Source: an uncultured Candidatus Saccharibacteria bacterium (GTDB taxonomy: Bacteria; Patescibacteriota; CPR2_A; CAYFQT01). Taken from it: a stretch of 64,000 nt of DNA. Both the position numbers and the translations under genes were made by a program. The notes beneath the pieces are model-generated. The model searched no databases. It was not told the origin of the DNA and worked only from the letters and a program-made list of their open reading frames with translations. Positions 3,517 through 60,779 of this stretch are shown piece after piece. Positions within the stretch are counted from its first letter, which is position 1, and the number at the start of each line of letters is the position of its first letter. The DNA is taken from the NCBI GenBank assembly GCA_964345445.1, contig CAYFQT010000038.1:30893-94892 (forward strand). The letters run 5' to 3'.

Positions 3517-3665
3517 AAACTCTGTGGCTTTTTAACTACAGTTCCTTGAAGATATTAAAAGCTGTGGATAATTATATTTGTATTTTTTTTATTTTGTAGT
3601 ATAATAAATTTTGTTTATTGTAATTAAAATAAATAATTTATAGGTTTTAACTTTAGGAATAATCG

Positions 3666-5018
3666 ATGGAAGAAATCAATGAAAAAATTCCTCCTCAAAA
3701 TATTGAGGCTGAACAGTGTGTTTTAGGTTGTCTTTTGTTAGATAAAGAGTCAATTGTTAAGATAGCAGATATTTTAAGCCCTTCAGATTTTTATCGAGAG
3801 AATCATGGGTTAATATTTAAGGTAATTTCAGAATTATATGAGCAAAGAAATCCTATAGATTTAGTTACTACCTCTAATAAATTAGAAGAAGAAGGACAAT
3901 TGGAGCAAATAGGAGGAGCAAGTTACTTGACTGTATTAGTAAATAGTGTTCCTTCTGCTGCACATGTAACATATTATGCCGATATTGTTCAACATAAGGC
4001 AACATTAAGAAGATTAATTTCAGCAGCTAATGAAATTACATCATTAGGATTTGAGGAAAATAAAGATTTAGATAAAATTTTAGATAAAGCAGAACAAACT
4101 TTATTTTCTGTTTCTCAAAAATATCTCAAGCAAAATTTTATTTCCATTAAAGAAGTATTAACCGAATCCTTTGATAGAATTGACAAATTACATAAAGATA
4201 AAGGTACATTACGAGGTATTGCCACTGGTTTTGTGGAATTAGATAGAATTTTAGCCGGCCTGCAAGCTGCAGATTTAATTATTGTGGCTGGCCGTCCAGC
4301 AATGGGTAAAACTTGTCTTGCTTTGAATATTGCTCAACATATAACTTCAGAGGAAAATGTTCCAGTAGGTATTTTTAGTTTAGAAATGTCCAAAGAACAA
4401 TTAGTAGATAGATTAATTTGTTCAGAAGCAGGGGTAGATTCTTGGAAATTAAGAACAGGTAATTTAGCAGATGAGGATTTTCCTAAAATAGGCCATGCAA
4501 TGGGAGTGCTTTCTGAAGCTCCTTTGTTTATAGATGATTCTCCTAATGTTAATGCAATGGAGATTCGTACTAAAGCTCGTCGTCTTCAATCTGAACAAGG
4601 TTTAGGAATAATTATAGTAGATTATCTTCAGTTAATGCAAGGTCGTAAATTAAAAAGTGATATAAATAGAGTTCAAGAGATTTCCGATATTTCAAGGGCT
4701 CTGAAATCACTTGCTCGAGAAATTAATGTTCCAGTGGTTGCGGTATCTCAACTTTCTCGAGCAGTAGAAACAAGACCTGACAGAATTCCTCAACTTGCCG
4801 ATCTGAGAGAATCAGGTTCTATTGAGCAAGATGCAGATGTAGTAATGTTTATTTACAGAGAAGATTATTATAATAAAGATACAGAAAGAAAAAATGTTGC
4901 TGATATCTTTATTAAAAAGCATAGAAATGGTCCCACAGGTCAAATAGAATTATATTTTCAACCTGAGCAAATGAAGTTTTCTAATTTGGAAAGAAAAAGG
5001 GAAGGGGTAGAAATATAA
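3666..5018 (+). CDS. dnaB: replicative DNA helicase
   Basis: GRPAMGKT Walker A, IIVDYLQLM, SQLSR motifs typical of DnaB. Confidence 0.93.
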   Translation: MEEINEKIPPQNIEAEQCVLGCLLLDKESIVKIADILSPSDFYRENHGLIFKVISELYEQRNPIDLVTTSNKLEEEGQLEQIGGASYLTVLVNSVPSAAHVTYYADIVQHKATLRRLISAANEITSLGFEENKDLDKILDKAEQTLFSVSQKYLKQNFISIKEVLTESFDRIDKLHKDKGTLRGIATGFVELDRILAGLQAADLIIVAGRPAMGKTCLALNIAQHITSEENVPVGIFSLEMSKEQLVDRLICSEAGVDSWKLRTGNLADEDFPKIGHAMGVLSEAPLFIDDSPNVNAMEIRTKARRLQSEQGLGIIIVDYLQLMQGRKLKSDINRVQEISDISRALKSLAREINVPVVAVSQLSRAVETRPDRIPQLADLRESGSIEQDADVVMFIYREDYYNKDTERKNVADIFIKKHRNGPTGQIELYFQPEQMKFSNLERKREGVEI

Positions 5019-5185
5019 AATCATTAATATTGTAATGTAGTTAGTCGAGTTAAACGAAGTATCTTCCCGGCAAAGCCGGGACTCGTGGTAAACATATGGT
5101 TTTAATGAGCGAAGCGATGCTATGCTACGGGTGTGAAGCATAATACTACGACTACTACATTTACTAACTTTTTATAATAATAGTA

Positions 5186-5209
5186 GCCGAGCTTAGCTCG
5201 GTCTTTTTA
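5186..5209 (+). terminator. Rho-independent terminator
   Basis: GCCGAGC-TTA-GCTCGGT hairpin followed by CTTTTTAT. Confidence 0.55.
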
Positions 5210-5341
5210 TTGCAATAAATCCCAATTTTTCATATAATTAAACTAATTACATTAGAGAATATAATAAAAATTATTTAATTACGCTGGAGCTGTGCGAAAG
5301 CACTAATTAAATAAATATTAATACTTAATTTTATCAGAAAG

Positions 5342-5962
5342 ATGGAAGAGCAAAAGATTAAACTTTTAAAATCAGATATTTTAGCCTCTTTATTAATAGG
5401 AATTCTGGCTTTTTTATTTTCATTAATCATAATCAAAAATTTAGCAATTAAAATTCCTTATTATCAGAGTGCTTTATTTTTTATCCCTCTTTGTTTAGTG
5501 GGAATTTATATTGGCTATTTACTTGGTCGAATAAAAAAAGTGTTTTTTCAATTTACTAAATTTGGTGAAACTGGTGGATTAAATTTGTTGGTAGATTTTG
5601 GTGTTTTAAATTTACTTATTTTATTTACAGGAATTAGTACAGGAATCTTGTACTCGGTTTTTAAAGCCATTTCCTTTACAGTGGCAGTTATCAATAGTTA
5701 TGTTTGGAATAAATTCTGGGTTTTTAAAAAAACAGGTTCTTCTAAAGAGACGAGTAAGGAGTTTGTTAATTTCATTATTGTAAGTTTAATTGGATTAGGA
5801 ATTAATGTATTATTAGCCAGCTTAATAGTTTATTTTTCTTCCCTGGGTAATCCACAACCACAATGGGAGAAGATTTGGGCAAATATAGGTGCTGCTTTTG
5901 GTTCTATTACAGCTATGATTTGGAATTTTATTGGATATAAATTTTTAGTATTCAAGAAATAA
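5342..5962 (+). CDS. GtrA-family polyisoprenoid-linked glycan translocation membrane protein, with 2-TM N-terminal extension
   Basis: QFTKFGETGGLNLLVDFGVLNLL matches the GtrA signature; multiple TM helices. Confidence 0.7.
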   Translation: MEEQKIKLLKSDILASLLIGILAFLFSLIIIKNLAIKIPYYQSALFFIPLCLVGIYIGYLLGRIKKVFFQFTKFGETGGLNLLVDFGVLNLLILFTGISTGILYSVFKAISFTVAVINSYVWNKFWVFKKTGSSKETSKEFVNFIIVSLIGLGINVLLASLIVYFSSLGNPQPQWEKIWANIGAAFGSITAMIWNFIGYKFLVFKK

Positions 5963-5997
5963 TTGCATTTAAATAAATATAAATAGGAGAATAGAAT

Positions 5998-6786
5998 ATG
6001 AAAGAAAGGCCTTATCTAACAATTATCATTCCTACTTATAATGAAGCTAAGCGTATTGGAAAGACTTTGGATGCTGTAGCTGATTTTTTAAAGAAACAAA
6101 AATATTCTGCTGAAATTTTGGTAATGGATGGAGGAAGCAAAGATGACACAAAAGGAGTTGTTAAAGTAAAAGAGGAATTGTTTGATGATATCCAATTTAT
6201 AGATGTTAGCAAAAACACTGAGGGCAGAAGCGGAAAAGGTTATGCAGTGAGATGTGGAATGATGAAAGCAAGGGGCCGATATGTTATGTTTACTGATGCT
6301 GACAATTCTACTCCCATTTCTGAAGTTGATAAACTTTTGCCTTATATGAAAGAATATGCAGTGGTAATTGGTTCTAGATATTTAAAAAGAGAAACTGTTA
6401 AAATAAAACAGCCTTGGTATAGGATTCTTTTGTCTCGAGCAGGTAATCTTTTGATTAAATTTTTAGTATTACCGGGCATTTTTGATACTCAATGCGGATT
6501 TAAAATATTTCGGCAAATAACAGCAAAAAAAATATTTTGCTTTCAATATATTGACGGATGGGGTTTTGACATGGAGATTTTGACTATAGCCTATAATTTG
6601 GGATATAAAATTAAAGAGGTATCAGTTTCCTGGTATGATGCCGGTGGCTCCAAAGTTCATTTATTTAAAGATAGTCTTAAAACATTAGCTGATTTATTAA
6701 AAATTAAATGGAATTTATTAACTGGGAAATATAGTAAGAAAAAATTACTTGATTGTCTTTTAGAAAAAGGATTGATTAAGAAATAA
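5998..6786 (+). CDS. GT2 polyprenyl-phosphate glycosyltransferase (GtrB/DPM1-like)
   Basis: IIIPTYNEAKRI N-terminus, TDADNS DXD motif. Confidence 0.85.
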   Translation: MKERPYLTIIIPTYNEAKRIGKTLDAVADFLKKQKYSAEILVMDGGSKDDTKGVVKVKEELFDDIQFIDVSKNTEGRSGKGYAVRCGMMKARGRYVMFTDADNSTPISEVDKLLPYMKEYAVVIGSRYLKRETVKIKQPWYRILLSRAGNLLIKFLVLPGIFDTQCGFKIFRQITAKKIFCFQYIDGWGFDMEILTIAYNLGYKIKEVSVSWYDAGGSKVHLFKDSLKTLADLLKIKWNLLTGKYSKKKLLDCLLEKGLIKK

Positions 6787-6874
6787 TTAAATAACTGAAA
6801 AACTTAATAAATAAAGAACCAAATAACAAAAAAACAGAAAAATAGAATTGTTATTAAGTTGGAAGTAAAAGTAT

Positions 6875-8650
6875 ATGGACAAATTATCATCTTTTATCAA
6901 AAAACACAAAGTCAAATTGATAGTTGGTTTATTATTAACTGTTATGTTTTTTACAATGCTTGCATCTTCTGTGGGAGATTCAGGAATTGTTGATGAAATA
7001 GCTCATATTCCTGCTGGTTATTCTTATTTAACTACCGGCGATTTTCGAATTAATCCTGAGCATCCTCCTTTGATTAAATCTCTGTCAGCTGTTCCTTTAT
7101 TATTTTTAGGATTGAAATTTCCTTATAAATATTGGCAAGCTTATGGTAATAATCAATGGGAGCTGGGTTGGAAATTTATTTACCATTTTGGTAACAATCC
7201 TGATCGTATCTTTTTTTGGGCTAGAATCCCTATAATTTTATTAGCTTTATTATTAGGTTATTTTGTTTTCAGGTGGGCAAGAGAGCTTTATGGAGCAAAA
7301 GCAGGAATTTTTGCTTTATTTTTATATTCATTTTCTCCTAACATCATTGCCCATTCTCGATTTGTAACTACTGATTTAGGAATGACTATTTTTTATGTAT
7401 TAGCTGTTTATTTTTTTGGTAGATTTTTAAAAAATCCTACTAAGAGAAATGTTGTTATTGCCGGGGTGATTTTTGGATTGGCCCAGTTGGCAAAATTTTC
7501 AGCAGTACTCCTAGGCCCGATATTTATTATCCTTGTGATATTAAAGGCTTATTCTGAGAGTAAATTTATAAAGCAAGAAGATAAATCTTGGATTTCCAAT
7601 TTACTAGCTTATTTGTTTAATAAAAAAGTTTTTAAGAATGGATTAAAATATTTAGCAAAGCTAATTTTAATTTTTACAATTGCTCTTGCCTTAATTCTTT
7701 TGGTTTATTGGGTTCATACATTCCGTATGCCTTTGGCTGTTTGTGAAGATTTAATCAAAGAGTCAATCCCAACTAATCAGAATATTCAAAATGGTCTTAT
7801 TACAATTTCTCACTTTTCTAGACCTTTGGCTCAATATCTTTTAGGATTAGCAATGGTTTTTGCTCATGTAGGAGGAGGTCATACTGCTTTTCTTTTAGGA
7901 GGTTTTTCCAGAGTAGGTTGGTGGTATTATTTCCCCGTTGCTTTTCTTGTAAAAACACCTATTCCTACTTTAATATTTTTAGTTTTAGCTATTGCCTTAA
8001 TTAGAAAATTTAAATGGAAGTTTTCGGAATGGCTTTTAATTGTCCCTGTTATTTTCTATTTTTTAATTAGTATTAAAGGTTCTTTAAATATTGGAGTAAG
8101 ACATCTTCTTCCTATTTATCCATTTATTTTTATTTATGTAAGTAAGTTAGCGCCTGGCATTCAACAATTAGCCCTTAACTCTGTTAAGTTTTCAAAAAAA
8201 TGGCTTTTTAATTCCTTTTATTTATTTTTTGCTATTTTGTGCGGCTGGTATTTATGGACTTCATTATCTATATACCCTTATTATGTTGCTTATTTTAATG
8301 AAGCAATAGGCCCTAAAAATGGTTATAAATATTTAGTTGATTCATCTTTAGATTGGGGTCAGGATTTAAAAAGATTAACTAAATATGTAGAAGAAAATAA
8401 TATTAAAAATATAAAAGTGGATTATTTCGGTGGGGGTGTGCCTCAATATTATATTCCAGATAGCATAGAGTGGCATTCTCAATATGGCAAGACTTCCGGC
8501 CCGATTGCAATTTCGGCTACTTTCTTACAAATGAGCAAGTTCTATGCTCCCTTAGAAAACCAACCTTCTTACCAGTGGATAGAGAAATATGAACCGGAGA
8601 CGGTAATTGGTCATTCGATTTTTGTGTATAATATACCTGAGGAGAAGTAA
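6875..8650 (+). CDS. GT-C family 39/83 (PMT/ArnT-like) integral membrane glycosyltransferase
   Basis: 591 aa, more than 10 TM helices, DEIAHIPAGYSY...EHPPLIK motif in the first periplasmic loop. Confidence 0.8.
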   Translation: MDKLSSFIKKHKVKLIVGLLLTVMFFTMLASSVGDSGIVDEIAHIPAGYSYLTTGDFRINPEHPPLIKSLSAVPLLFLGLKFPYKYWQAYGNNQWELGWKFIYHFGNNPDRIFFWARIPIILLALLLGYFVFRWARELYGAKAGIFALFLYSFSPNIIAHSRFVTTDLGMTIFYVLAVYFFGRFLKNPTKRNVVIAGVIFGLAQLAKFSAVLLGPIFIILVILKAYSESKFIKQEDKSWISNLLAYLFNKKVFKNGLKYLAKLILIFTIALALILLVYWVHTFRMPLAVCEDLIKESIPTNQNIQNGLITISHFSRPLAQYLLGLAMVFAHVGGGHTAFLLGGFSRVGWWYYFPVAFLVKTPIPTLIFLVLAIALIRKFKWKFSEWLLIVPVIFYFLISIKGSLNIGVRHLLPIYPFIFIYVSKLAPGIQQLALNSVKFSKKWLFNSFYLFFAILCGWYLWTSLSIYPYYVAYFNEAIGPKNGYKYLVDSSLDWGQDLKRLTKYVEENNIKNIKVDYFGGGVPQYYIPDSIEWHSQYGKTSGPIAISATFLQMSKFYAPLENQPSYQWIEKYEPETVIGHSIFVYNIPEEK

Positions 8651-10729: not shown

Positions 10730-10796
10730 TATATTCTTTAAAAGATATTTTAGAAAAATCAGGGTAAATACTCTGATTTTTTGTTGGCGCATAAAC

Positions 10797-10825
10797 CTTG
10801 ACTTTTTGCCTATTTTAAGGTATAA
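10797..10825 (+). promoter_or_regulatory. sigma70 promoter TTGACT-17-TATAAT
   Basis: TTGACT at 10797-10802, 17-nt spacer, TATAAT at 10820-10825, upstream of corA. Confidence 0.55.
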
Positions 10826-10920
10826 TAGAATAATTACAAAACTATAGAGACCCGACCCCCAATAGTAAAGACTTGGGGGAGGTTGGGTCTTCAAAAGTCA
10901 ATTCAATTAGCGGTATAGTT

Positions 10921-18533: not shown

Positions 18534-18800
18534 ATTCTCCTTCTTAGACACCCACTTTTAAACTGGGGATGAATACGCAAAAAAGAAGTTTTCTGCTTTA
18601 GGGGATTTCGCAAAAAAGAAATATTAGATAACCCGGGTTTTAATTTGGGTAAGCTTCATTTATTAGTTATTAATTTAGTATTATAAAAGTTTTTATTTTG
18701 TAGTATAATTAAATAAGTTACATTAAACAATATAATAAGAATTATTTGATTACACTGGAGTGAAACAAAAGCTCTAATGTAAAGAAGGAGAATAATTATA

Positions 18801-20039
18801 ATGACAAACATTAATTTTAGCAATATTATAAAAAATCTAGAGAGAGTTTCTAATATAATAGATGTTGATGAAGATGTTATAGAGATTTTATCAAGTCCCC
18901 AGAGAGTTATTCAAGTAAGTATTCCAGTAAAAATGGACTCTGGTAATATAGAAGTTTTTCAAGGATATCGTGTTCAATATAATAATGCTCGAGGACCATA
19001 TAAAGGCGGTATTCGTTATCATCCAGATACTGGACTTGATGAGATTCAAACATTGGCAGCACTTATGGCTTTTAAATGTACAGTAGCTAATATTCCTTTC
19101 GGTGGCGCCAAGGGCGGTATAAAATCTGATCCTACCAAGATTTCTAAAGATGAACTTGAAAGATTAACTCGAGGCTATATAGATAGGATTTATGAAGTTA
19201 TTGGCCCTCAAAAAGATATTCTAGCTCCGGATATTTATACAGATGCTCAAATTATGGCTTGGGTTATGGATGAATATAGCAGAAGAACTGGTTATAATGT
19301 AACAGCAGTTGTAACAGGAAAACCAATAGAAATTGGTTGTTCAGCAGAGAGAGGAGGATCGACATCACTGGGGGGTGTTATTATATTAAAGGAAGCTTTA
19401 AAGTCAATAAAATCTAAACCATCTGATACAAAAGTGGCTATTCAGGGATTTGGAAAAGTAGGTTCTTTCATGGCGAGTTTTTTGGAAAAAGAAGGTTTTA
19501 AAATAATTGCTATATCTGATGTTTCAGGCGGGATAATGAACAAAAAGGGATTAAATGTTCAAGAAATTTTAAAATACAATCAGAAAACTGGTAGTGTTAC
19601 TGGTTGTCCTAAAACTGATAAAATTACTAATAGCCAATTATTAGAATTAGATATTGATGTTCTTATACCCGCTGCTGTAGAAAATCAGATTACTGAAGAA
19701 AATGCTGATAAAATAAAGGCTAGAATAATTCTAGAGATGGCTAATGCTCCCATAACACAAATTGCTGATGGAATGTTGGAAAAAAGAAAGATTATTGTTG
19801 TTCCAGATATTTTGGCGAATAGCGGAGGAGTGGTAGTTTCTTATTTTGAATGGATACAAGATATGCAGGCTTATTGTTGGTCAGAGGGAGAAGTTGTTAA
19901 AAGATTAAAAGAAGTTATGGTAACATCATTTGACGAAGTGTTAGAAAAGAGTAGAAAGTATAAGACTAGCTTAAGAATGGCTTCTTATATATTGGCTGTA
20001 GAAAGATTATCTGCCGCTATCAATTTAAGAGGAAAATAA
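18801..20039 (+). CDS. gdhA: glutamate dehydrogenase (Glu/Leu/Phe/Val dehydrogenase family)
   Basis: KGGIRYHP, GGAKGG, 412 aa. Confidence 0.92.
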   Translation: MTNINFSNIIKNLERVSNIIDVDEDVIEILSSPQRVIQVSIPVKMDSGNIEVFQGYRVQYNNARGPYKGGIRYHPDTGLDEIQTLAALMAFKCTVANIPFGGAKGGIKSDPTKISKDELERLTRGYIDRIYEVIGPQKDILAPDIYTDAQIMAWVMDEYSRRTGYNVTAVVTGKPIEIGCSAERGGSTSLGGVIILKEALKSIKSKPSDTKVAIQGFGKVGSFMASFLEKEGFKIIAISDVSGGIMNKKGLNVQEILKYNQKTGSVTGCPKTDKITNSQLLELDIDVLIPAAVENQITEENADKIKARIILEMANAPITQIADGMLEKRKIIVVPDILANSGGVVVSYFEWIQDMQAYCWSEGEVVKRLKEVMVTSFDEVLEKSRKYKTSLRMASYILAVERLSAAINLRGK

Positions 20040-20076
20040 TCCAAACTTTTTAAATAAACTTTTCCCCGGGGTAATT

Positions 20077-20865
20077 ATGGATTTTAAGAAATATAATAGT
20101 GATATTGGAACAATCATTTTAGCAGCAGGAAAGGGAACAAGATTAAATTACGGAAAACCTTCTCCTATACCAAAAGTTTTGTATAAAATTTGTGGTCGTC
20201 CAATGATTTCTTATATTTTAGATACTTTAGAGAAGATTGGAATTTGTAATATAGTTATTGTAGTTGGCTACAAAGCGGATTTGGTGGAAAAAGCTTTAGG
20301 AGACAAGTATACTTATGTAATTCAAAAAAAACAGCAGGGGACAGGTAATGCTCCTTTATATGCAAAAAATATATTAGCCGGCAAGGTTGATACAGTTTTA
20401 ATTCTTCAGGGAGATGACTCAGCTTTTTATGAACCTCAAACATTACTGGATTTAATCAATTTGCATAATAGACAAAAAGCTATTTTGACATTCCTAACAA
20501 TTGATCATCCTGCTCCTTCTGAGATGGGAAGAGTAGTGCGAGATAAAAAGGGGAATGTGCAGGGTATTGTTGAGAAAGAGGTAATAACTGAAGAACAAAA
20601 GAAAATTTGTGAGATAAATGCTGGTTTATATTGTTTTAATGATAGATGGCTTTGGCAATCACTCCCGAAATTAAAACACAGCAAGGTAGGGGATGGAGAA
20701 TATGCTCTTCCTGATTTGGTTAATATGGCAACCTCTGAAGGCAAGAAAGTTATAACTTATAAAATTGATGATTTAAATCAATGGGTGGGAATTAATAATA
20801 TAAAGCAATTAGAGCATGCTAATAAATTGATGCGCACAAAGTTAGTCAGTAAGGTAATAAAGTAA
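20077..20865 (+). CDS. sugar-1-phosphate nucleotidyltransferase (GlmU N-terminal-domain-like)
   Basis: IILAAGKGTRL pyrophosphorylase motif; 262 aa with no acetyltransferase domain. Confidence 0.75.
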   Translation: MDFKKYNSDIGTIILAAGKGTRLNYGKPSPIPKVLYKICGRPMISYILDTLEKIGICNIVIVVGYKADLVEKALGDKYTYVIQKKQQGTGNAPLYAKNILAGKVDTVLILQGDDSAFYEPQTLLDLINLHNRQKAILTFLTIDHPAPSEMGRVVRDKKGNVQGIVEKEVITEEQKKICEINAGLYCFNDRWLWQSLPKLKHSKVGDGEYALPDLVNMATSEGKKVITYKIDDLNQWVGINNIKQLEHANKLMRTKLVSKVIK

Positions 20866-20879
20866 TAAGGTTGAGGTAT

Positions 20880-21647
20880 ATGGCAACTTACAAAACAAAA
20901 GGGATAATTTTACATAGAAAAGATTTTTCTGAGTCTGATAGAATTGTTACTATTTTCACCTTGGATTATGGTAAAATATATACTATAGCAAAGGGAATAA
21001 GACGTCCGGGGAGTAAATCATCGGGTCATTTGGAACTTTTTACCTATTGTGATTTATTTATAGCTTCTGGCAGGAATTTAGATATTATTTGTCAAGCAGA
21101 AACAAAAAATAGTTTCCGGCCACTAAGATATAATTTGTTTAAAACTAGCCTTGCTTATTATATAGCTGAGTTGGTTTTAAAGATCGCTCAGGAAAGACAA
21201 AAAAATAAAAATGTTTTTAATTTGCTTAAAGATACTTTTAATTATTTATCAAAAGACGGCAATCCAGAGGTATTACTTAGATGGTTTGAACTTGCTTTGA
21301 TTGGTAATACAGGTTTTCATCCTGAATTTAATCGATGCGTTCATTGCAAAAGAGAAATTAAAGAAAATCAAGAGAATTTCTTTAGCGCCACCTCTGGAGG
21401 TATTTTGTGCCCTTTGTGTATAGAATCTGATTCCTTTGTTATTAGACTATCTAAGGATGCATTAAATAATCTTAGAATTTTACAAAGAAGTGAATTAGAA
21501 GATACAAATCAATTAAAAATTAAAAAAGATATTTTAGAAGAAATTGAAAGTATAATGAATTTTTATATAAATTTTGTTTTGGAAAGAGAATTGAAATCCA
21601 AGAAATTTGTACAGAAGATTAAAAAAGAAAAAATTGCCTATTCTTAA
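20880..21647 (+). CDS. recO: DNA repair protein RecO
   Basis: OB-fold N-terminus and C-x2-C...C-x2-C zinc motif. The ORF track starts at 20871; MATYK at 20880 is the likelier start. Confidence 0.88.
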   Translation: MATYKTKGIILHRKDFSESDRIVTIFTLDYGKIYTIAKGIRRPGSKSSGHLELFTYCDLFIASGRNLDIICQAETKNSFRPLRYNLFKTSLAYYIAELVLKIAQERQKNKNVFNLLKDTFNYLSKDGNPEVLLRWFELALIGNTGFHPEFNRCVHCKREIKENQENFFSATSGGILCPLCIESDSFVIRLSKDALNNLRILQRSELEDTNQLKIKKDILEEIESIMNFYINFVLERELKSKKFVQKIKKEKIAYS

Positions 21648-38288: not shown

Positions 38289-38325
38289 AAAATAATTTGT
38301 ATTTTAAAATTTTTATATTGATAGT

Positions 38326-38414
38326 ATAGTTTTGCGAAGTAATGAAGAAGTAATGAAGGAGTACATAAGTATTATTAATTTTGAATGTTCTTTTAATTTA
38401 CTTCGCAAAACTAT
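38326..38414. repeat. 17-bp perfect inverted repeat (ATAGTTTTGCGAAGTAA / TTACTTCGCAAAACTAT) around a 55-nt loop
   Basis: The loop itself contains the direct repeat GAAGTAATGAAG x2. Confidence 0.7.
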
Positions 38415-38448
38415 CATTGTCCGACATATTTTCAAATGTAAAATAACA

Positions 38449-38478
38449 CCAGCAGAACCCCTTCCCTGCTGGTTTTTT
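38449..38478 (+). terminator. Rho-independent terminator closing the dcw operon
   Basis: CCAGCAG-AACCCCTTCC-CTGCTGG followed by TTTTTT. Confidence 0.6.
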
Positions 38479-38741
38479 ACACTAATTAAATATATTTTAT
38501 CTTAGAATTACTCTGATAAAATAATAAGACTTTTAGTAATAGAGTTTGCCAAAATTGGTGACTTTTTTAAAAAAAATTAAATTCTATCCCCTATTATGAT
38601 GAAACTTAGTATTTTTTTACTCCAGATCTCTATATTGCTGTTATATTGCTGTAGTGAGGGATTTTAATATAGTTCAGCAATAGCAATAATGTAGATTATT
38701 GAAGTGAAGGTGTTTGATTTTTAAAAAAATAATAAAAGATT

Positions 38742-39629: not shown

Positions 39630-42482
39630 TCAACCAGAGTCTGATCTTCCTTTGGACGAAATTTTTACCTCTTCTCCTTCTTTCAACTCATGTGTTTTAC
39701 TTTTTTCTTTTTGTTCTTTTTCTTCAGTTACTGAGTTTTGGGTCTTTTCTTTTGAAGATGAAAGAGTATCAGAAGGTTCTGTGGGTTTATGTGATATCTT
39801 AATTTCTTCTTTTTCTTTTATTGGCCTATGATGTATTATAGAAGGCTTTGCTTCTTTTTTTTCTTCAGCTATTTCTTCTTGAGGTTTTTCTTTTACTTTT
39901 ATACCTTCTTCTTGAGTAACTTCTTCTAAAATATCTTCTGCAGTTATTCTTACCTCTGGGTATTTTTCTACTCTAATAGTTTCTCTGGGTCTTTTTTCTT
40001 TAAATTTCTGAGGTTGAGTTTCTTCTTCGTTTTCCTCTTCTGTTTCTTCTATCCCTGCCCAACGAGCAATTTTTTCTTCTACTACATTTTTTGGGGTGCT
40101 ATATCTTTCTTGTGATAAAAGAATAACCTTTTCTTTATTTTTATTTTCCCCTTTGAGTGGAGGTAAAGTTTGAGCAGAAAAAGCAGGAGAAGTTACCCCA
40201 TTAATAGCAAGTTTTAAATAAATATTATATTTATCCAAATTTACTATATCAGTTTCATCAAAGACTGGGGCTACTTCTTTGGCTAAGAATGTTGCATCTG
40301 CTGCGCCTACTCTAAAGGAAATTAATGTTCCAATATTGCCAAAAACAGCATCACGAACTACTTCAGGCATTTGGGCTATATATTGGTTAGCTACTATTAA
40401 ATTTAATCCATATTTTCTTGCTTCAGATAATATTTTGGCAAATGATTCAGTAGCAAAGTTTTGAAACTCATCAACATATAGATAAAAATCTTTTCTCTGT
40501 TTTTCTGGGATGTCTACTCGACTCATAGCTGCTAACTGGAGTTTAGTAATCATCATTGCTCCTAAAAGAGAAGAATTGTCTTCCCCTATAGTTCCTTGAG
40601 CTAATTTGATTAATAATATTTTTCCTGAATCAATAACTTCTCGCATATCGATAGTGCTTTTAGGCTGCCCTATAATGTTTCTTATTGTTGCCGAAGATAT
40701 AAACTGCCCTACTTTGTTTTGAATTGGAGAAATTGCTTCTGTTACTAAACGAGGATTTGATTGATATCCAGGAAACTCTTGAGTCCAAAATCTTTTTACT
40801 TCTATATCGGTAATTTTCTTAACCACTTTTTTTCTAAATTTTTTATCAGTAAGCATTCGATTTACTGATAACATTGTAGAATTAGGATAATCTAACAAAG
40901 CTAATAAAGTATTTCTTAAAATATGTTCTAATCTAGGACCCCAGGTGAAAGCCCAGATTTTTTGAAAAATGGAAATTAATCCTGAACATATCAACCCTTT
41001 ATAGTCAGGGTCCACAGCTTCTAGTGGATTGAAAGCAATAGGATATTCTCGATCAGAAGGATCAAAGATAATTACATCATTTATTCTTTCAGAGGGAATG
41101 AAATTTAATATATCGTCAATTAGGTCTCCATGAGGGTCCACTACTCCTACTCCTTTTCCTGCTCGGATATCAGAAATAGCCATATTTCTCAACATATTAG
41201 TCTTGCCCATCCCAGTTTTACCAATTAAATACATATGTTTTCTTCTGTCATCAGTTTTTATTCCAAATTTTTGTCTTATATGTCTAAAGTTTGTCTCGGC
41301 AAATAAAGTTAGTTCGCTAGATGGAATAACTTTTTCTTCAATTGGTAAGTTATCAGGAGGTTCTCCTTTTTTAGATTTTGTCCAAGCGATTGTGGGAGTT
41401 TCTACTCCTATAGTTGGAAGATGAAATATTGAAGCTAATTCTTCAGTATTTAAAACAAAGCCAGAGTCGGAAAACAAACGTGCTTTATAGTCTTGAAGAA
41501 AATTTTCACCTTCATAAGTTTTGTCTGATTTGAAACCATTTAGGTTAGCGGTTGAAAATTGTTTAAATGTTCCAATAAGAGATTGAAGATGAGGATTTAC
41601 AATTTGTCCTTTCTTGCAAACATATGCTGCTCTTATTTTTGTATCAAAACCAAGTTTGGATACTTTTTCCTCAATAGCCGAAAGCTGAGTCTCTTGAGCA
41701 GATGAGAGTTGAGGAGGTCCGGAGGCACTTTCTTCAGTGGTTCCTGGTGTAATCAAAGAAGTAATTTGTCCTAAAACTTTAGCTAAAAATCCAAAAGCTG
41801 TTCCTATGCCAAAAGCTTCTGGGTTTCCACCAGCTTTTACTATGTCTATATAAGAAAGACCTTTTTTTTGCCATTCTTCCCCTGAAGGACGAACGAGTAT
41901 TTGAATCCAAATTTGTTCATTATTTTCTTTTAATTTTCCTAAAACCCCAGTGATTCCTGCCAGAGGATCTACTTCGAAATCAGGAAAGGTTTTAATAGGA
42001 AAAAAATCTAATTTGTTTAAGAGAAGTTGAGTGCCCATAATTTGTTTTTCTTTTAAATCAATCTCAGTGTAATCAGGTACTTTTTCAATTTCTACTTCAG
42101 GATATTGGGCATAAATTTGTCCTTCCACAAAATCTCTTAGATGTTCTGGAACCCAAATAAAAAATCCAATTTTTCCATTTGTTGAAGCAATTTCAAAACT
42201 AATGTGTTCTTGTAATGTTCCTTCCAGAAATCTTTTTTTAGTAGGTTTATAAATTCCATGTAGAGAAGCAAACATCATTTCTGCTGCAGTAGGTCCTTTT
42301 TCATTTTCTTTTGGAATATACAAAGATAAAAGAACGTATTTTTGTTGAGAAACCCAGTTTAATTTTCTACGGCTTAAAAAAGACAAAAATAAAAGTAGAG
42401 GTACTAGAAACCATATACCCCAAAATAAAAATTTACCAGTTTGTGGTAATATTTGGCTTAAAATTTTAAATAAGCCTTCCAT
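39630..42482 (-). CDS. membrane-anchored P-loop NTPase of the type IV coupling protein (TraD/TraG/VirD4; FtsK-HerA superfamily) type, with long Glu/Lys-rich C-terminal tail
   Basis: N-terminal TM (FLFWGIWFLVPLLLFLSFL), Walker A GKTGMGKT, Walker B YLYVDEFQNF about 240 aa later, ANQYIAQ block, 220-aa low-complexity EK-rich tail. Confidence 0.7.
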   Translation of the reverse strand: MEGLFKILSQILPQTGKFLFWGIWFLVPLLLFLSFLSRRKLNWVSQQKYVLLSLYIPKENEKGPTAAEMMFASLHGIYKPTKKRFLEGTLQEHISFEIASTNGKIGFFIWVPEHLRDFVEGQIYAQYPEVEIEKVPDYTEIDLKEKQIMGTQLLLNKLDFFPIKTFPDFEVDPLAGITGVLGKLKENNEQIWIQILVRPSGEEWQKKGLSYIDIVKAGGNPEAFGIGTAFGFLAKVLGQITSLITPGTTEESASGPPQLSSAQETQLSAIEEKVSKLGFDTKIRAAYVCKKGQIVNPHLQSLIGTFKQFSTANLNGFKSDKTYEGENFLQDYKARLFSDSGFVLNTEELASIFHLPTIGVETPTIAWTKSKKGEPPDNLPIEEKVIPSSELTLFAETNFRHIRQKFGIKTDDRRKHMYLIGKTGMGKTNMLRNMAISDIRAGKGVGVVDPHGDLIDDILNFIPSERINDVIIFDPSDREYPIAFNPLEAVDPDYKGLICSGLISIFQKIWAFTWGPRLEHILRNTLLALLDYPNSTMLSVNRMLTDKKFRKKVVKKITDIEVKRFWTQEFPGYQSNPRLVTEAISPIQNKVGQFISSATIRNIIGQPKSTIDMREVIDSGKILLIKLAQGTIGEDNSSLLGAMMITKLQLAAMSRVDIPEKQRKDFYLYVDEFQNFATESFAKILSEARKYGLNLIVANQYIAQMPEVVRDAVFGNIGTLISFRVGAADATFLAKEVAPVFDETDIVNLDKYNIYLKLAINGVTSPAFSAQTLPPLKGENKNKEKVILLSQERYSTPKNVVEEKIARWAGIEETEEENEEETQPQKFKEKRPRETIRVEKYPEVRITAEDILEEVTQEEGIKVKEKPQEEIAEEKKEAKPSIIHHRPIKEKEEIKISHKPTEPSDTLSSSKEKTQNSVTEEKEQKEKSKTHELKEGEEVKISSKGRSDSG

Positions 42483-42535
42483 TTATTCACCCCTTTAAAT
42501 TATATATTCCCCTATTTTTATTATATCATTTTTCT

Positions 42536-43681
42536 CTATTTTTTATTTATCTTTTTTAGCCCATAAGTACATTTTTTTATTCTTGTAAATTGAGGTTTTT
42601 CTTGAAGATTTAAAACTATAGTATTAGGATTTACTTGACGTACTTCTAACACTTTTTTAATAATTTCATCTTTGCTAAGCGGTTTTCCTTCCTTTTCCAA
42701 TATTTCTTTAATAACATTTGCTACTGTTCCTGGTTTAAGCCCCCATTCAGAAAGTCCATAAATTCCTCTTCCTACTAAAACAAATTTTTTATCTTTTACT
42801 AATTCATTATGCACTGCTTGACTGTTTACTGGTTTTTTATCAAAATTTGCTTCGGTAATCATTTGAGCGACTGTTCTAAAATGAACAGGTTTTTTATATT
42901 TTCTTAAAACATATAAAGCTTTGTCTCTTATATTTTTAGGATTAATATTTGACCAATATTTAAGTCCCCATCTGCCATCTTCAGTTTTCATAATATTTCC
43001 ACTTATTTCTAAACAAGATAAGAGAAAGTTATCAGATAACATAAGTTGATTTTGCTTATAAAATTCTTGTATTTTGATTTTTTGTAGAATATAGTCGGAT
43101 TCTTGAACTTTTTGAGCTTTTTGTAGTATTTTCTCAAATGATAAAATTGTAGGTATAGTCAATCTTTGAGGATTTTTTAATAGACTCCAAGATTTTTTTA
43201 ATTTTTCCTGTTTTATTTTGATAAATTTATCTTCTGTTTCTAGGATGAATTTTAAAGCATTAATATTTTCATTACTTTGTTTTATTGAATTTAGGGTTTT
43301 TTGAATAATTTTTTCTTCAGTTAATACTCCCCCACTCTCTTTTATTATTTCTATAAGTAGATTAATTGCTGGGTTTAATATCTTTTTTGAAGAAGGTTGA
43401 TTTATTTTTATAAGACTCATTTTTTCTATTTGACGAATTCGTTCTCGAGATACTGAATATTCTTTTCCAATTTGTTCTAATGTCTGTTTCGCCTCGCCTT
43501 GTAGAGCAAAACGCTTAATTATTACTTCTTTTTCTCTAGGTTTAAGATTTTCAAGAACAGAAGATACTACCTTAGCTGGTTCAAATTCTTGTAAGGCATT
43601 TTTATGATTTATAGATATTATTTTGTCTAAAATAGAAGATTGAGTTTGTTGTTTTTCTTCATTATTCATTTTTTTCTCCAT
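42536..43681 (-). CDS. DNA-binding protein with sigma70 region-4-like HTH and C-terminal HARE-HTH-like winged helix
   Basis: LKPREKEVIIKRFAL...TLEQIGKEYSVSRERIRQIEKMSLIKI matches sigma region 4.2; C-terminal VLVGRGIYGLSEW is the HARE-HTH hallmark. Confidence 0.6.
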   Translation of the reverse strand: MEKKMNNEEKQQTQSSILDKIISINHKNALQEFEPAKVVSSVLENLKPREKEVIIKRFALQGEAKQTLEQIGKEYSVSRERIRQIEKMSLIKINQPSSKKILNPAINLLIEIIKESGGVLTEEKIIQKTLNSIKQSNENINALKFILETEDKFIKIKQEKLKKSWSLLKNPQRLTIPTILSFEKILQKAQKVQESDYILQKIKIQEFYKQNQLMLSDNFLLSCLEISGNIMKTEDGRWGLKYWSNINPKNIRDKALYVLRKYKKPVHFRTVAQMITEANFDKKPVNSQAVHNELVKDKKFVLVGRGIYGLSEWGLKPGTVANVIKEILEKEGKPLSKDEIIKKVLEVRQVNPNTIVLNLQEKPQFTRIKKCTYGLKKINKK

Positions 43682-43698
43682 ATCTGAATATAGTTATA

Positions 43699-43795
43699 TT
43701 TTCTAATGTAATTACTTAATTAGTGCTTCCACTTTGTTACAGCGTAATTAAGTAATTTTCTATTATATTTTCTAATGTAATTACTTAATTATAGC
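43699..43795 (-). promoter_or_regulatory. duplicated promoter/operator region: 26-nt direct repeat x2 plus a third copy of the 57-nt conserved promoter-leader module
   Basis: TATTTTCTAATGTAATTACTTAATTA at 43699-43724 and 43768-43793. The reverse complement of 43742-43795 matches the modules upstream of gtrA and gdh. Confidence 0.55.
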
Positions 43796-43907
43796 ACAGA
43801 ATGAGGAAAATGTCAAGTCTTTTATATTTAATATATAGTTAATTATTGTTATAAAAAAATACTATAGATTATTAAAAATCATAGCTGTTTTGCAGAATTG
43901 ACTTATT

Positions 43908-45371
43908 TTATCCTTTAATAACTCCAATAGGTTCCAGTCTAGCTATTTTTTTAGCTAAACCTGCTTTTTCTACTATATTAACAACTATATCTATATCTTT
44001 GTAAGCCTCAGGAGCTTCTTCAGCCAACCCTGGTTTGCTTTTGCACTTTACTATAATACCTCTTTTTCTTAAATCTTCTTCTAATTTTTCTCCCCAAATT
44101 TTTCTTTTAGCTGCTTTGCGGCTTAATACTCGCCCTGCTCCATGACAGACAGATCCAAAAGTATTTTGAGATTTTTCTGCCCCTGTTAATATATAAGAAG
44201 CAGTGCCCATATCACCAGGGATTAGAACTGGTTGTCCATAAGGTTTATAATCTTCTGGTAGGTCAGGATGACCAGGTCTGAAAGCTCGAGTGGCCCCCTT
44301 TCTATGCACACATACCTTAATAGTAGATGGTGATTGGTGGTTAGTGACTGTCTGGTGTTCTTCTATCTTAGCAATATTGTGGGCTACATCGTATAATAAC
44401 TTTAATTGAAAATTTTTTATTTTTCCTGCTAAGGTTTTTTCCCAAATTTTTCTTACTAGATGGGTTAAACATTGTCTGTTAGCCCAAGCAAAATTAGCCG
44501 ATGCACTCATAGCGGAAAAATATTTTTTGCCTTCCTCTGAATCTAAAGGGGCACAAGCCAACTCGGGGTCAGGAAGCTTAATTCTAAAACTTGATAACTT
44601 CCCGTGCATTTCTCTTACATAGTCAGTACAAACTTGGTGTCCTAGTCCTCGAGAGCCAGAATGAATAAAAATAGTTATTTGATCTTTTTTTAAATTAAAT
44701 TTTAAAGCTACATGTTTGTCAAAAATTTGTTTAACAGTCCCTATCTCTAAAAAATGATTTCCAGACCCCAAAGTTCCTAATTGATTAATTCCTCTCTGTT
44801 TTGCTCTTTCACTTACATTTTCTGGATTAACACCTGACATACATCCTTGCTCTTCAGTATGTTCTAAATCTTCTTTTGTTCCATATCCATTTTGGATAGC
44901 CCATCCGCTTCCATTTTTTAGAACTCCATCCATTTGGGAAGAATTAAGTTTTATTTTTCCCCCTCTACCCACTCCGGAGGGGATATTATAAAATAATTCG
45001 TCTAGTAATTTTTCTAAATGAGGTTTTAATTCTTCAAAAGTAACTTCAGAGGTTAGAACTCTTGTTCCACAATTGATGTCGTAACCGACTCCTCCAGGAG
45101 AGATAACACCTCGAGGCAGTTTTGTTGCCGCTACTCCTCCTATAGGAAAGCCATATCCTTCATGAACATCAGGCATAGCAAAAGCATACCCTACAATCCC
45201 AGGTAGAGTGGTTACATTCACTAATTGTTCTAATGACCTGTCTTTCCAAATTGATTGCAAAAGCAATTCATCTGCATAAATTCTGGCCGGAACTCGCATA
45301 TCACTTCTGTAACTTTTAGGAATTTCATATAAATATTCTTCAATTTTTTTCAAATATTTTTGCTCAATCAT
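43908..45371 (-). CDS. rtcB: RNA-splicing ligase RtcB
   Basis: GSGNHFLEIG, HNIAKIEEH and other RtcB signature blocks, 487 aa. Confidence 0.92.
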   Translation of the reverse strand: MIEQKYLKKIEEYLYEIPKSYRSDMRVPARIYADELLLQSIWKDRSLEQLVNVTTLPGIVGYAFAMPDVHEGYGFPIGGVAATKLPRGVISPGGVGYDINCGTRVLTSEVTFEELKPHLEKLLDELFYNIPSGVGRGGKIKLNSSQMDGVLKNGSGWAIQNGYGTKEDLEHTEEQGCMSGVNPENVSERAKQRGINQLGTLGSGNHFLEIGTVKQIFDKHVALKFNLKKDQITIFIHSGSRGLGHQVCTDYVREMHGKLSSFRIKLPDPELACAPLDSEEGKKYFSAMSASANFAWANRQCLTHLVRKIWEKTLAGKIKNFQLKLLYDVAHNIAKIEEHQTVTNHQSPSTIKVCVHRKGATRAFRPGHPDLPEDYKPYGQPVLIPGDMGTASYILTGAEKSQNTFGSVCHGAGRVLSRKAAKRKIWGEKLEEDLRKRGIIVKCKSKPGLAEEAPEAYKDIDIVVNIVEKAGLAKKIARLEPIGVIKG

Positions 45372-45467
45372 AAAATTTCCCTCTGTTTATATTTTATCAA
45401 ATTAGAGCAAAATAAAAAACAATCTAAAGATTTAGATTGATATATAATAATATATATTAATAATAAA

Positions 45468-45872
45468 CTATATATCAAATATAATCTGAGCTTGCCAAAT
45501 TCCTTTTTTTTCTTCTATTTTTAAATCATGATAGGTAGCAGCTTTGATTTCTAACTTTATATCAGAAGTTTTCATACCTTTAACTTCCGCTTCAATTTCT
45601 TTTTCATTTAGTTTTTTAATGTTAAATTGACTGTATATTTCTTGATTTGCATCATATAAATATAAGAGCTCATTTAAAAAGTCAATGAGTAAATCTTGAA
45701 TATTGCTAGCTTTAAGTCTTATTTCTCGTTTAATTTCAGGGGTAATTTTATTTAAATCAACCATATTGGAGAACATTGCATAGGCACTGTTTATAAAAAG
45801 CTCAGATAATTCTTTTCCATATGCTCGGATAGCTAAGTCAGCTATGTGTTCTAAATTTTCAAATTTTTTCAT
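45468..45872 (-). CDS. archease (RtcB activator)
   Basis: MKKFENLEHIADLAIRAYGKELSELF matches the archease N-terminal consensus; adjacent to rtcB. Confidence 0.8.
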   Translation of the reverse strand: MKKFENLEHIADLAIRAYGKELSELFINSAYAMFSNMVDLNKITPEIKREIRLKASNIQDLLIDFLNELLYLYDANQEIYSQFNIKKLNEKEIEAEVKGMKTSDIKLEIKAATYHDLKIEEKKGIWQAQIIFDI

Positions 45873-60462: not shown

Positions 60463-60779
60463 TTAAATCTCCAGAGAAATAGATAATAATTACTAATTAA
60501 ATTTTACCATTCTAATTGAATAATTACAATAAAAAATATAATAATAGATTATTTAATTATAATTCATTTAATTTTTCTAAAACAGGCAAAGAGATATCAA
60601 TTAGGTCTTTAGTGTCGCTTCTGTTTAATTCTGCTAAGCTACCTTTTGGTTTACAAAGAAATAAAAGTTCTATTATAGCTCTATAAAGTTCTGGAGTTAT
60701 GATTTTGTTGTCTTTTAATTCCTCAGCTATATTTATTGGATCTCTTTCTTTAGATTGAGGTAATTTTTTATTTTGTATT

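Follow-up and report, generated by a model that had tools for sequence, protein, structure and literature searches.

Within the 64,000-nucleotide stretch of DNA analysed here (hereafter the window; contig CAYFQT010000038.1 of an uncultured patescibacterial genome), three unrelated operons are preceded by copies of a 69-nt leader repeat, called the unit below. Copy A (5233-5320, plus strand) lies ahead of a gtrA operon, copy B (18704-18790, plus strand) ahead of gdh, the gene for glutamate dehydrogenase (GDH), and copy T (43793-43690, minus strand) ahead of a gene for a protein with sigma-70 region 4 and HARE-HTH domains, referred to as the T protein. In the window and in its relatives, the unit sits at a fixed nucleotide after a resident -10 box and in sense orientation, is gained and lost in exact units, is amplified in tandem and is mosaic. 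It is a clade-restricted element confined to a handful of closely related genomes and falls into no known RNA family. It is a mobile or duplicating leader element, which is probably transcribed to give a hairpin in the 5'-UTR (untranslated region). The explanation towards which we lean is that the repeat has been copied by microhomology at the direct repeat TAATTAAA and is transcribed as a cis-acting 5' hairpin.

The unit and its copies in the window

An earlier reading of this DNA, made without database searches (the sequence-only reading), had described a 57-nt promoter-leader module shared by the three operons. Its central comparison is reproduced: the string at 5233-5289 is as quoted, and it agrees with 18704-18760 in copy B at 49 of 57 positions without gaps. 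The third copy is indeed found on the minus strand, although the quoted string sits at 43793-43740 and not at 43795-43742, an offset of 2 nt. A downstream string said to be common to copies B and T was loosely labelled, with GAAAGCACTAATTAA belonging to copy A (5296-5310) and the other versions being GAAGCACTAATTAA in T (43729-43716) and AAAAGCTCTAATG in B. The distance to the start codon, put at 60-100 nt, is slightly longer when measured from the first TATAAT (103, 91 and 118 nt in A, B and T). The module does open at a real -10 box, with good -35 boxes 17 nt upstream in A and T. The gtrA promoter (5210-5238, plus strand, from a promoter scan) consists of TTGCAA at 5210-5215, a 17-nt spacer and TATAAT at 5233-5238, and the T-operon promoter (43788-43816, minus strand) of TTGACA at 43816-43811, a 17-nt spacer and TATAAT at 43793-43788. 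The gdh -10 box (TATAAT, 18704-18709, plus strand) closes the 19-mer TTTTATTTTGTAGTATAAT at 18691-18709, which recurs exactly, as had been noted, in the dnaB promoter (3587-3605), although the latter is without the module.

Comparison with an allele lacking the element delimits the unit of copy A to 69 nt at 5239-5307 (plus strand), running from TAAACTAATTACATT to GCACTAAT and flanked by the 8-nt direct repeat TAATTAAA at 5235-5242 and 5304-5311. Four TAATTA boxes occur within about 75 bp of this copy. The 69-nt unit of copy B (18710-18778, plus strand) carries the variant core GGAGUGAAACAAAAGCUC and is matched by a covariance model of the element at 18740-18789. Copy T comprises a first full unit of 69 nt at 43719-43787 (minus strand), with its hairpin at 43757-43708, and the start of a second unit at 43694-43722 (minus strand), where 29 nt (TAATTAAGTAATTACATTAGAAAATATAA) repeat the sequence at 43791-43763, 69 nt upstream. 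This amounts to about 1.4 tandem units. The unit length is 69 nt throughout, apart from 68 nt in one relative (L026).

With filters off, the covariance model scores 70.4 bits for A, 69.2 for T and 56.6 for B over all 64 kb, and the next-best sense match reaches 23.6 bits. Matches with up to three mismatches to the box TTACATTANANAATATAATA number 6 against 1.5 expected, a count that none of 100 shuffles attains, and those to the hairpin arm AATTAYTTRATTACRCTG number 8 against about 1.5 expected, again reached by no shuffle. Of the window genes, 45 have 60 nt or more of upstream gap; an exact TATAAT is present in 18 of these gaps and the full module in three. The module is thus not the generic promoter consensus, and the circumstance that the sequence-only reading had named as fatal to its proposal, an AT-rich promoter motif found before most genes, does not hold in the window; a discrete module linking three unrelated operons stands. 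Hence a generic AT-rich consensus or an assembly artefact deserves hardly any credence, even if the genome has 30.5% G+C and TATAAT-like strings are common, because shuffles never reach the counts and the same units are present in independent NCBI, ENA, JGI and Logan assemblies.

The 23.6-bit match (E=0.03; near 60513-60575) belongs to a coreless remnant without the hairpin, copy X (60494-60575), whose orientation is ambiguous as it is near-palindromic. It keeps the 5' half of the unit and a stem arm, is without CGCTGG..GCAC, and lies inside the 5' region of a response-regulator gene (60462-60091, minus strand). The 317-nt 'intergenic' gap downstream of the open reading frame (ORF) 61136-60780 resembles minus-strand coding sequence at 60563-60779, with no listed start, and may be an unannotated or disrupted ORF ending beside the remnant. 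At the level of the whole window, genes run on the plus strand up to about 38.3 kb and on the minus strand beyond; this convergent switch falls at a 450-nt gap (about 38290-38740), and the orientation of the 69-nt units tracks that of the flanking genes.

Empty, filled and multiplied alleles

The window proteins are also present in the NCBI metagenome assembly GCA_012975005.1, and loci on the contigs of relatives, numbered with the prefix L, were used for comparison. Three relatives of the GDH are 86, 84 and 82% identical (next 55%), three of the T protein 79, 77 and 70% (next 43%), and five of GtrA 97, 83, 69, 67 and 61%. GDH and T-protein homologues carry Patescibacteria names (Kerfeldbacteria, Komeilibacteria, Kuenenbacteria).

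The most informative site is that of gtrA. In L032, whose GtrA is 97% identical, TTGCAA, a 17-nt spacer and TATAAT are followed directly by TAAATAAATATTAATAC, and there is no module, while terminator, promoter and downstream leader are the same as in the window. Anchored on these shared flanks, the window exceeds L032 by exactly 69 nt (5239-5307), bounded by the direct repeat TAATTAAA. As the promoter is intact in this empty allele, it is resident and lies outside the inserted unit. A variant module is found in L028 (83% GtrA identity), and no module is found at the gtrA site of L029, L030 and L033 (67, 61 and 69% identity). At the gdh site, L005 carries the full module as in the window, L002 a 5'-truncated copy consisting of the hairpin part only, and L004 is empty, with GTAGTACAAT followed directly by the ribosome-binding site. 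At the T site, L024 and L031 retain a degenerate unit of about 0.8 length with a 14-nt deletion, and the contig of L026 starts inside an array with a period of 68 nt and at least 2.1 copies at 100% identity. A non-orthologous locus, L012, likewise has two units, a 29-nt stretch recurring exactly 69 nt downstream. Whole-unit variation at one locus, of the kind known from variable-number tandem repeats, is therefore seen as 0 (L032) or 1 unit (window, L028) at the gtrA site and as about 0.8 (L024, L031), 1.4 (window) and at least 2.1 units (L026) at the T site.

Across this material, all 11 full copies are in sense orientation and join the -10 box at an identical point. L002 and L024, which are truncated, have lost the 5' half and retain the hairpin. 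In L019, the module stands ahead of a second structured leader, a position that points to action at the 5' end and not at the ribosome-binding site. In independent assemblies, several contigs have one end within the unit (L001, L016, L020, L026 and L028), as is expected of a multi-copy repeat. One of these, L016 (JABAOC010008277.1, positions 1-10), a further contig of the source assembly, ends inside copy A and reads TAAACTAATT, the start of the unit, after GCACTAAT, and not TAAATAAATA; this end reflects either a loop of the assembly graph through the repeat or a strain whose gtrA site has a second tandem unit.

Sequence similarity does not follow orthology. Full units are 75-97% identical wherever they are located. 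The closest comparison, 97% with two differences, is between L005 (gdh, genome Ga0394678) and L019 (a DUF389 gene, genome SDBS01), from genomes whose GDH are 82% identical, and the orthologous pairs B and L005, B and L002, and T and L024 reach 83, 48 and 64%. Mosaicism is evident from the core GGAGUGAAACAAAAGC, found in B and L028, and from a 21-22-nt insert, AGTTCGACARGCTCACTACAR, found in L012b and L028. These patterns would fit either strong constraint on the whole sequence or copies that are still exchanged or renewed, and the data do not separate the two. The carrier genes, in the window and in relatives, comprise GtrA/GT2/PMT, GDH/NTP-transferase/RecO, the sigma-r4-HARE-HTH protein with a TrwB-like ATPase, DUF389 and a 42-aa ORF.

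Distribution

The family as found here is small, with at least five loci in the SDBS01/BAEC19 relative (contigs of about 0.35 Mb) and three in the 64-kb window. Among JGI and other metagenomes, pattern matches are limited to three or four related genomes (SDBS01/BAEC19, Ga0394678, JABAOC, JABAOH), and the same units were recovered from independent NCBI, ENA, JGI and Logan assemblies. Two degenerate patterns of the GC core, searched in one genome each of 185,579 species, gave no match for the first and three for the second, all by chance in GC-rich genomes and none real. Viral contigs yielded a single chance match within a coding region, plasmids none, and phages just AT-rich chance matches in Bacillus jumbo phages. 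Searches with nhmmer and the covariance model across all collected loci added no diverged copies. In Rfam 15, the whole window at gathering thresholds returned one tRNA only and nothing at the module, and the region 5000-5400, with E up to 10, returned chance matches of at most 22 bits against thresholds of 47-120. A literature search on the element found nothing relevant.

The predicted hairpin

Single-sequence folds of the unit give a long AU stem around a GC core. In the nested model of the 3' half, a 13-bp AU stem is followed by an asymmetric C/AC, a GCU/AGC helix, a 3x3 internal loop GGA/GRA, a GC/GC helix and a triloop. In copy A, the hairpin is predicted at 5269-5318 (plus strand; from the fold, the covariance model match of 70.4 bits and RNAalifold), with the long stem P1 at 5269-5281/5304-5316. 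Its interior is made up of C/AC, GCU 5283-5285 paired with AGC 5299-5301, the loop GGA/GAA, GC 5289-5290 paired with GC 5294-5295, and the loop UGU.

The statistics for this structure come from 13 related copies, and the structure was derived from the same copies. Under the nested model, pairing takes in 82.7% of cells, a share that falls to 21-47% once the partners are slid. Double-sided changes affect seven pairs against 3.5 expected (9 of 500 shuffles reach seven), and the covariation score is 0.203 against 0.165 in shuffles (7 of 500). The five inner pairs are composed of GC7/GU3/AU1, CG13, UA13, GC9/GU3/AU1 and CG10/UA2, so that compensatory changes occur in three of the five; this lends the predicted hairpin modest support. 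The variant core of B and L028 corresponds under the model to a compensatory change of C-G to U-A, the inner GC/GC helix of B being G-C plus U-A. Run blind on the same alignment, RNAalifold returns exactly the same five inner pairs. Taken together, the compensatory change at symmetric positions and the asymmetry of the conserved purine loops speak for a helix of nucleic acid and against a palindromic protein operator.

Several other structures were tried and rejected. A first inner model, CGCU/AGCG, in which loop and bulge measure 7 nt each, is broken in B, L024 and L028, and its covariation does not exceed that of shuffles (80 of 500). A loop-bulge pseudoknot of GGAGC with GCAC demands an A-A mismatch in most copies, and a hairpin in the 5' half, AUUAYAUU/AAUAUAAU, is unsupported: most copies conserve a C-A mismatch, and no compensation is seen. 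A leader peptide is precluded by stop codons in all three frames of the unit. Compared by eye with known small motifs, the hairpin fits neither a hammerhead core (CUGANGA/GAAA), kink-turn, sarcin-ricin/loop E, preQ1 or fluoride motif, nor a glutamine motif, SRP domain IV, integron attC site or archaeal bulge-helix-bulge.

A proposed route of spread and action

In the mechanism that we favour, the unit, lying between direct repeats TAATTAAA(T) right after a sigma-70-type -10 box, would form the first ~70 nt of the transcript of the downstream operon. New copies would arise via copy-choice or microhomology-mediated recombination at TAATTAAA, which overlaps TATAAT+TAAA; such recombination would account, with no need of a transposase, for the fusion to the -10 box as well as for the fixed orientation. 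Slippage between the two flanks could later add or remove units. The unit would be transcribed as the 5' end of the mRNA and its 3' half would fold into the irregular hairpin, which may act in cis as a 5' stabiliser or as a binding site of a common RNA-binding factor. The carrier operons would then share a post-initiation handle and not a dedicated promoter or sigma factor.

This bears on the two proposals of the sequence-only reading. Control of the three operons by one regulator or sigma factor is not favoured, as the carrier genes are functionally incoherent and the module is dispensable at orthologous sites. The alternative of a mobile promoter cassette is closer to the evidence insofar as a mobile piece is concerned, although in the window it is the leader that moves and the promoter, with its -35 and -10 boxes present in the empty allele L032, that is resident.

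A number of points weigh against the proposed mechanism. Both the transcription start and the existence of the hairpin in RNA are predictions from sequence, and insertion is indistinguishable from precise deletion, with parsimony at the gtrA site favouring loss in L032. The consensus energy is only -2.5 kcal/mol (RNAalifold), and the copies are 13 related ones. With 18 G-U pairs against 11 A-C mismatches (p=0.13) and similar folding energies for sense and antisense, the sense strand cannot be shown to be the one that folds. In B and L024, three pairs are broken. Finally, almost the whole unit, including its unpaired parts, is conserved at 75-97%, which a simple hairpin function does not explain.

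Weighing the alternatives

The strongest competing explanation, which we regard as a serious but clearly lesser possibility, is a selfish or neutral dispersed repeat without any host role, whose hairpin serves its own propagation (for example as single-stranded DNA recognised by an HUH/Y1 enzyme, as in REP/RAYT or elements derived from IS200/IS605) or is a by-product of AT-rich palindromes. Gain and loss of exact units, tandem amplification, mosaics and the failure of similarity to track orthology are what such a repeat would show, as are contigs of several assemblies breaking inside the unit, the narrow clade distribution, a hairpin assignable to either strand and the functional incoherence of the carrier genes. 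Against it, all 11 full copies lie in sense at the same -10 junction, copies persist at three orthologous sites in genomes whose proteins are 70-86% identical, and truncated copies selectively retain the hairpin. Furthermore, neither a transposase nor a RAYT gene is among the 35 genes, of the 62 listed for the window, that were scanned, a search confined to the window. Taking the persistence at orthologous sites together with the hairpin retained in L002 and L024 and the position of the module in L019, some host-level constraint on the unit appears the favoured reading.

The hallmarks of miniature inverted-repeat transposable elements (MITEs) are only partly present. There are empty and filled alleles with a flanking duplication, namely the 69-nt difference with TAATTAAA flanks and a second empty site at gdh. 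The flanking repeat, however, measures anything from 5 to 29 nt depending on the copy, which a duplication made by a transposase would not. TAATTAAATAATTA and TAATTAAAT, the ends of the unit, are direct repeats and seem partly inverted only since TAATTA is palindromic; the true inverted partner is the 5' arm of the long stem (AATTATTTAATTA), which is internal. Insertion in either orientation and at many kinds of site, and a cognate transposase, as expected of MITEs, were not observed in the 11 full copies and the scanned window genes. REP/REPIN-RAYT or IS200/IS605 systems have a GC-rich imperfect hairpin with a conserved 5' tetranucleotide, which mostly lies 3' of genes, and a Y1 transposase gene. 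Likewise, these features are wanting: the stem is AU-rich, the unit lies 5' of genes, and no PF01797-type gene occurs in the scanned part of the window.

More speculative, and in our judgement rather improbable, is a bolder form of the favoured mechanism: a transposase-independent 'promoter-homing leader' that would spread by microhomology at TAATTAAA, a sequence formed where a -10 hexamer meets an AT-rich discriminator, with a 5'-UTR hairpin whose purine-rich internal loop belongs to the docking site of a lineage-specific RNA-binding or antitermination factor and a copy number in tandem that tunes dosage. If this were true, a minimal-genome bacterium with very few regulators would bring unrelated operons under one post-initiation circuit through copies of a 69-nt cassette.

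A shade less credible still, yet also a rival to be taken seriously, is an operator array in DNA, in which the TAATTA boxes and the GC core would bind one transcription factor, possibly the sigma-r4/HARE-HTH protein behind copy T, that represses or activates all carrier promoters from about -10 to +60. The four TAATTA boxes of copy A, the conservation of sequence and not of pairing alone over most of the unit, its fixed position relative to the promoter and the occurrence of the coreless remnant X in another promoter region would be consistent with this, and the largest arrays stand before a DNA-binding-protein gene, as expected of autoregulation. An operator should display conserved symmetric half-sites and be kept with its gene. 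Instead, symmetric core positions covary in a compensatory manner (GC to AU, CG to UA) without keeping base identity, the conserved purine loops GGA/GRA are asymmetric, and the module is dispensable, with orthologous promoters that have no element. In addition, the T protein family is Patescibacteria-wide, whereas the module is found in one small clade.

A metabolite or ion riboswitch, or another ancient cis-regulatory RNA, is very improbable: it would account for a 5'-leader hairpin that is conserved, its unpaired purines included, and shows some covariation. But there is no Rfam match with E up to 10, the downstream genes share no common pathway, where a riboswitch would precede functionally related genes over a wide phylogenetic range, and no expression platform is seen, the distance from the hairpin to the Shine-Dalgarno (SD) sequence varying from about 3 to more than 100 nt with no conserved terminator or SD-sequestering alternative and no U-tract behind the hairpin. 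The unit is, moreover, tandemly duplicated and absent at orthologous sites of relatives with 61-97% protein identity, neither being a trait of riboswitches. Riboswitch and generic promoter motif are both effectively excluded.

Relation to known repeat and leader families

Behaviourally, the closest analogues appear to be small modular intergenic repeats (BOX, ERIC, Correia/MITE-like) and 'mobile promoters'. Pneumococcal BOX (boxA-boxB(n)-boxC), ERIC and BIME are, like the unit, short, non-coding and modular, with a subunit in variable tandem number; they are dispersed beside unrelated genes, have predicted hairpins and encode no transposase. BOX-type repeats are co-transcribed and have been reported to modulate the expression of neighbouring genes. 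These families are not known to share sequence similarity with the unit, which is a 69-nt, AT-rich element with one small GC core. Its full copies are also found in sense only and fused to the -10 box at one and the same nucleotide; BOX, ERIC and BIME, in contrast, lie in either orientation and frequently at 3' ends.

The Correia elements of Neisseria (CREE/NEMIS) and MITEs are comparable as small non-autonomous elements whose end, joined to the flanking target, forms a -10 box sequence, which are co-transcribed with a hairpin transcript and which leave filled and empty sites between strains. Correia elements, however, have terminal inverted repeats, a TA duplication, both orientations and a length of ~100-150 bp, while the unit has direct flanks (8 to 29 nt), a -10 box that pre-exists in the empty allele, and tandem amplification. 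In 2012, Matus-Garcia et al. reportedly described 'putative mobile promoters', identical promoter regions upstream of non-homologous genes. The likeness lies in near-identical upstream sequences before unrelated genes within and between genomes, and in the SDBS01 genome and at the window corA gene the promoter TTGACTTTTTGCCTATTTTAAGGTATAAT is part of the shared sequence, as in mobile promoters. For the three window copies, in contrast, what is shared starts no earlier than the -10 box, with unrelated -35 regions, so that a leader moves and not a promoter.

JUMPStart/ops with RfaH, the boxB hairpin of lambda nut and the LoaP hairpin resemble the unit as short conserved elements just past the promoters of unrelated, often long operons. 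Polysaccharide or glycosylation and conjugation-like genes recur among their targets and the carriers, and a hairpin with unpaired purines would suit a protein partner. There is, however, no known sequence resemblance, neither a NusG paralogue nor another partner came to light, and those elements are not known to be tandemly amplified or polymorphic by exact units. The unit is not a member of any named family; the -10 junction, uniform orientation, direct flanks and whole-unit tandem variation set it apart.

Promoters and operons around the copies

The operon behind copy A (5342-8650, plus strand) encodes, according to Pfam, GtrA (5342-5962), a GT2 glycosyltransferase (5998-6786) and PMT_2 (6875-8650). 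Behind copy B (18801-21647, plus strand) lie GDH (18801-20039), an NTP-transferase (20077-20865) and RecO (20871-21647). The operon behind copy T (39630-43669, minus strand) encodes the sigma70-region-4/HARE-HTH protein and a TrwB/TraG-like ATPase (42482-39630). Its first gene most likely starts at ATG 43669 behind GGAG rather than at the ORF start 43681, and the called orthologues of its protein are 377-378 aa long. Directly upstream of copy T, the RNA ligase RtcB and its activator archease are encoded together (43908-45872, minus strand); in the relative L024 (6704-8137), a fusion protein of sigma-r4 and the RNA-polymerase alpha-CTD adjoins RtcB/archease.

The T-operon promoter is ~95% identical to those of its orthologues in L024 and L031. 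The gdh orthologues of three other genomes retain TTTTGTAGTA(T/C)AAT and show no clear -35 box, and the TTTTATTTTGTAGTATAAT shared by dnaB and gdh may represent a second promoter type of the organism, with an upstream T-tract plus GTAG. Within the unit, a second TATAAT is found 27 nt (26 in T) past the first in A, B, T, L012a, L019 and L026. It varies to TATAAG (L005), TATAAC (L022) or TATAAA and is deleted in L002 and L024. Being kept in only about two thirds of units, this second ATATAAT box is unlikely to be an obligatory -10 element. A promoter-proximal sigma-70 pause element would need an intact -10-like hexamer, with A at position 2 and T at position 6, at ~+10 to +25 of the early transcribed region; the second TATAAT would be a candidate in the six copies named.

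The corA promoter of the window (CCTTGACTTTTTGCCTATTTTAAGGTATAAT, 10796-10850, plus strand) is followed by AGAATAATTACAAAACTATAGAG, which resembles the 5' half of the unit and has no hairpin. Over 31 nt it is identical to the promoter at L012 5796-5826, a non-orthologous locus in another genome that precedes 69-nt units, while the orthologous corA promoter in L002 is just ~70% alike to that of the window. The corA/L012 case suggests that the promoter itself is also shared or exchanged in the clade. In the SDBS01 genome, the promoter (TTGACTTTTT..TTTTAAGGTATAAT) is in full common to two of three copies (L012 and L022), which also share the -35 region TTGACTTTTT; TTAAGGTATAAT is present in L012, L019 and L022, and is all that L019 shares.

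Other structured leaders and candidate RNAs

Two further structured regions were observed in the window. Between the dnaB stop codon (5018) and the copy-A promoter, the region 5030-5212 (plus strand) includes a comparatively GC-rich stretch of ~140 nt that the long stem GUAGUUAGUCGAG/CUACGACUACUAC closes. This stretch has a folding energy of -56 kcal/mol (z = -4.0, none of 200 shuffles being as stable), is followed by an intrinsic terminator at 5186-5202, matches no Rfam family and may be regarded as a candidate small RNA gene. In L032, a different, likewise structured sequence takes its place.

A second conserved leader occurs at 57633-57553 and 59968-59885 (both minus strand; 91% identical), with a third copy in the relative L019 (~2945-2895, minus strand). 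The window copies precede a single-domain response regulator (57545-57135) and a 95-aa EF-Tu-domain-2-like protein (59877-59590), and the third copy lies upstream of the DUF389 gene. Two hairpins are predicted in it, CCCUAUC...GAUAGGG and CUCUGU...ACAGAG, and the GGAGG ribosome-binding site might base-pair with a stretch of CCUC. As no Rfam match was obtained with E up to 1, it looks like an undescribed candidate for a cis-regulatory RNA.

Implications

The element breaks short-read assemblies of these genomes and can pass for a regulon motif. Its filled, empty and amplified natural alleles (window A against L032 at gtrA; L004, L002 and L005 at gdh; L024, the window and L026 at the T site) amount to ready-made constructs for studying the effect of the unit. 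Patescibacteria, also known as CPR, have tiny genomes with few recognisable regulators, and to our knowledge hardly anything has been learnt of the way in which they control transcription or the fate of mRNA. If the favoured explanation is true, a repeat with one exact landing nucleotide past the -10 box that lends unrelated operons a common structured 5' end would offer these bacteria a simple way to co-regulated or co-stabilised transcripts, and the unit would be an example of promoter-targeted sequence spread that perhaps needs no transposase.

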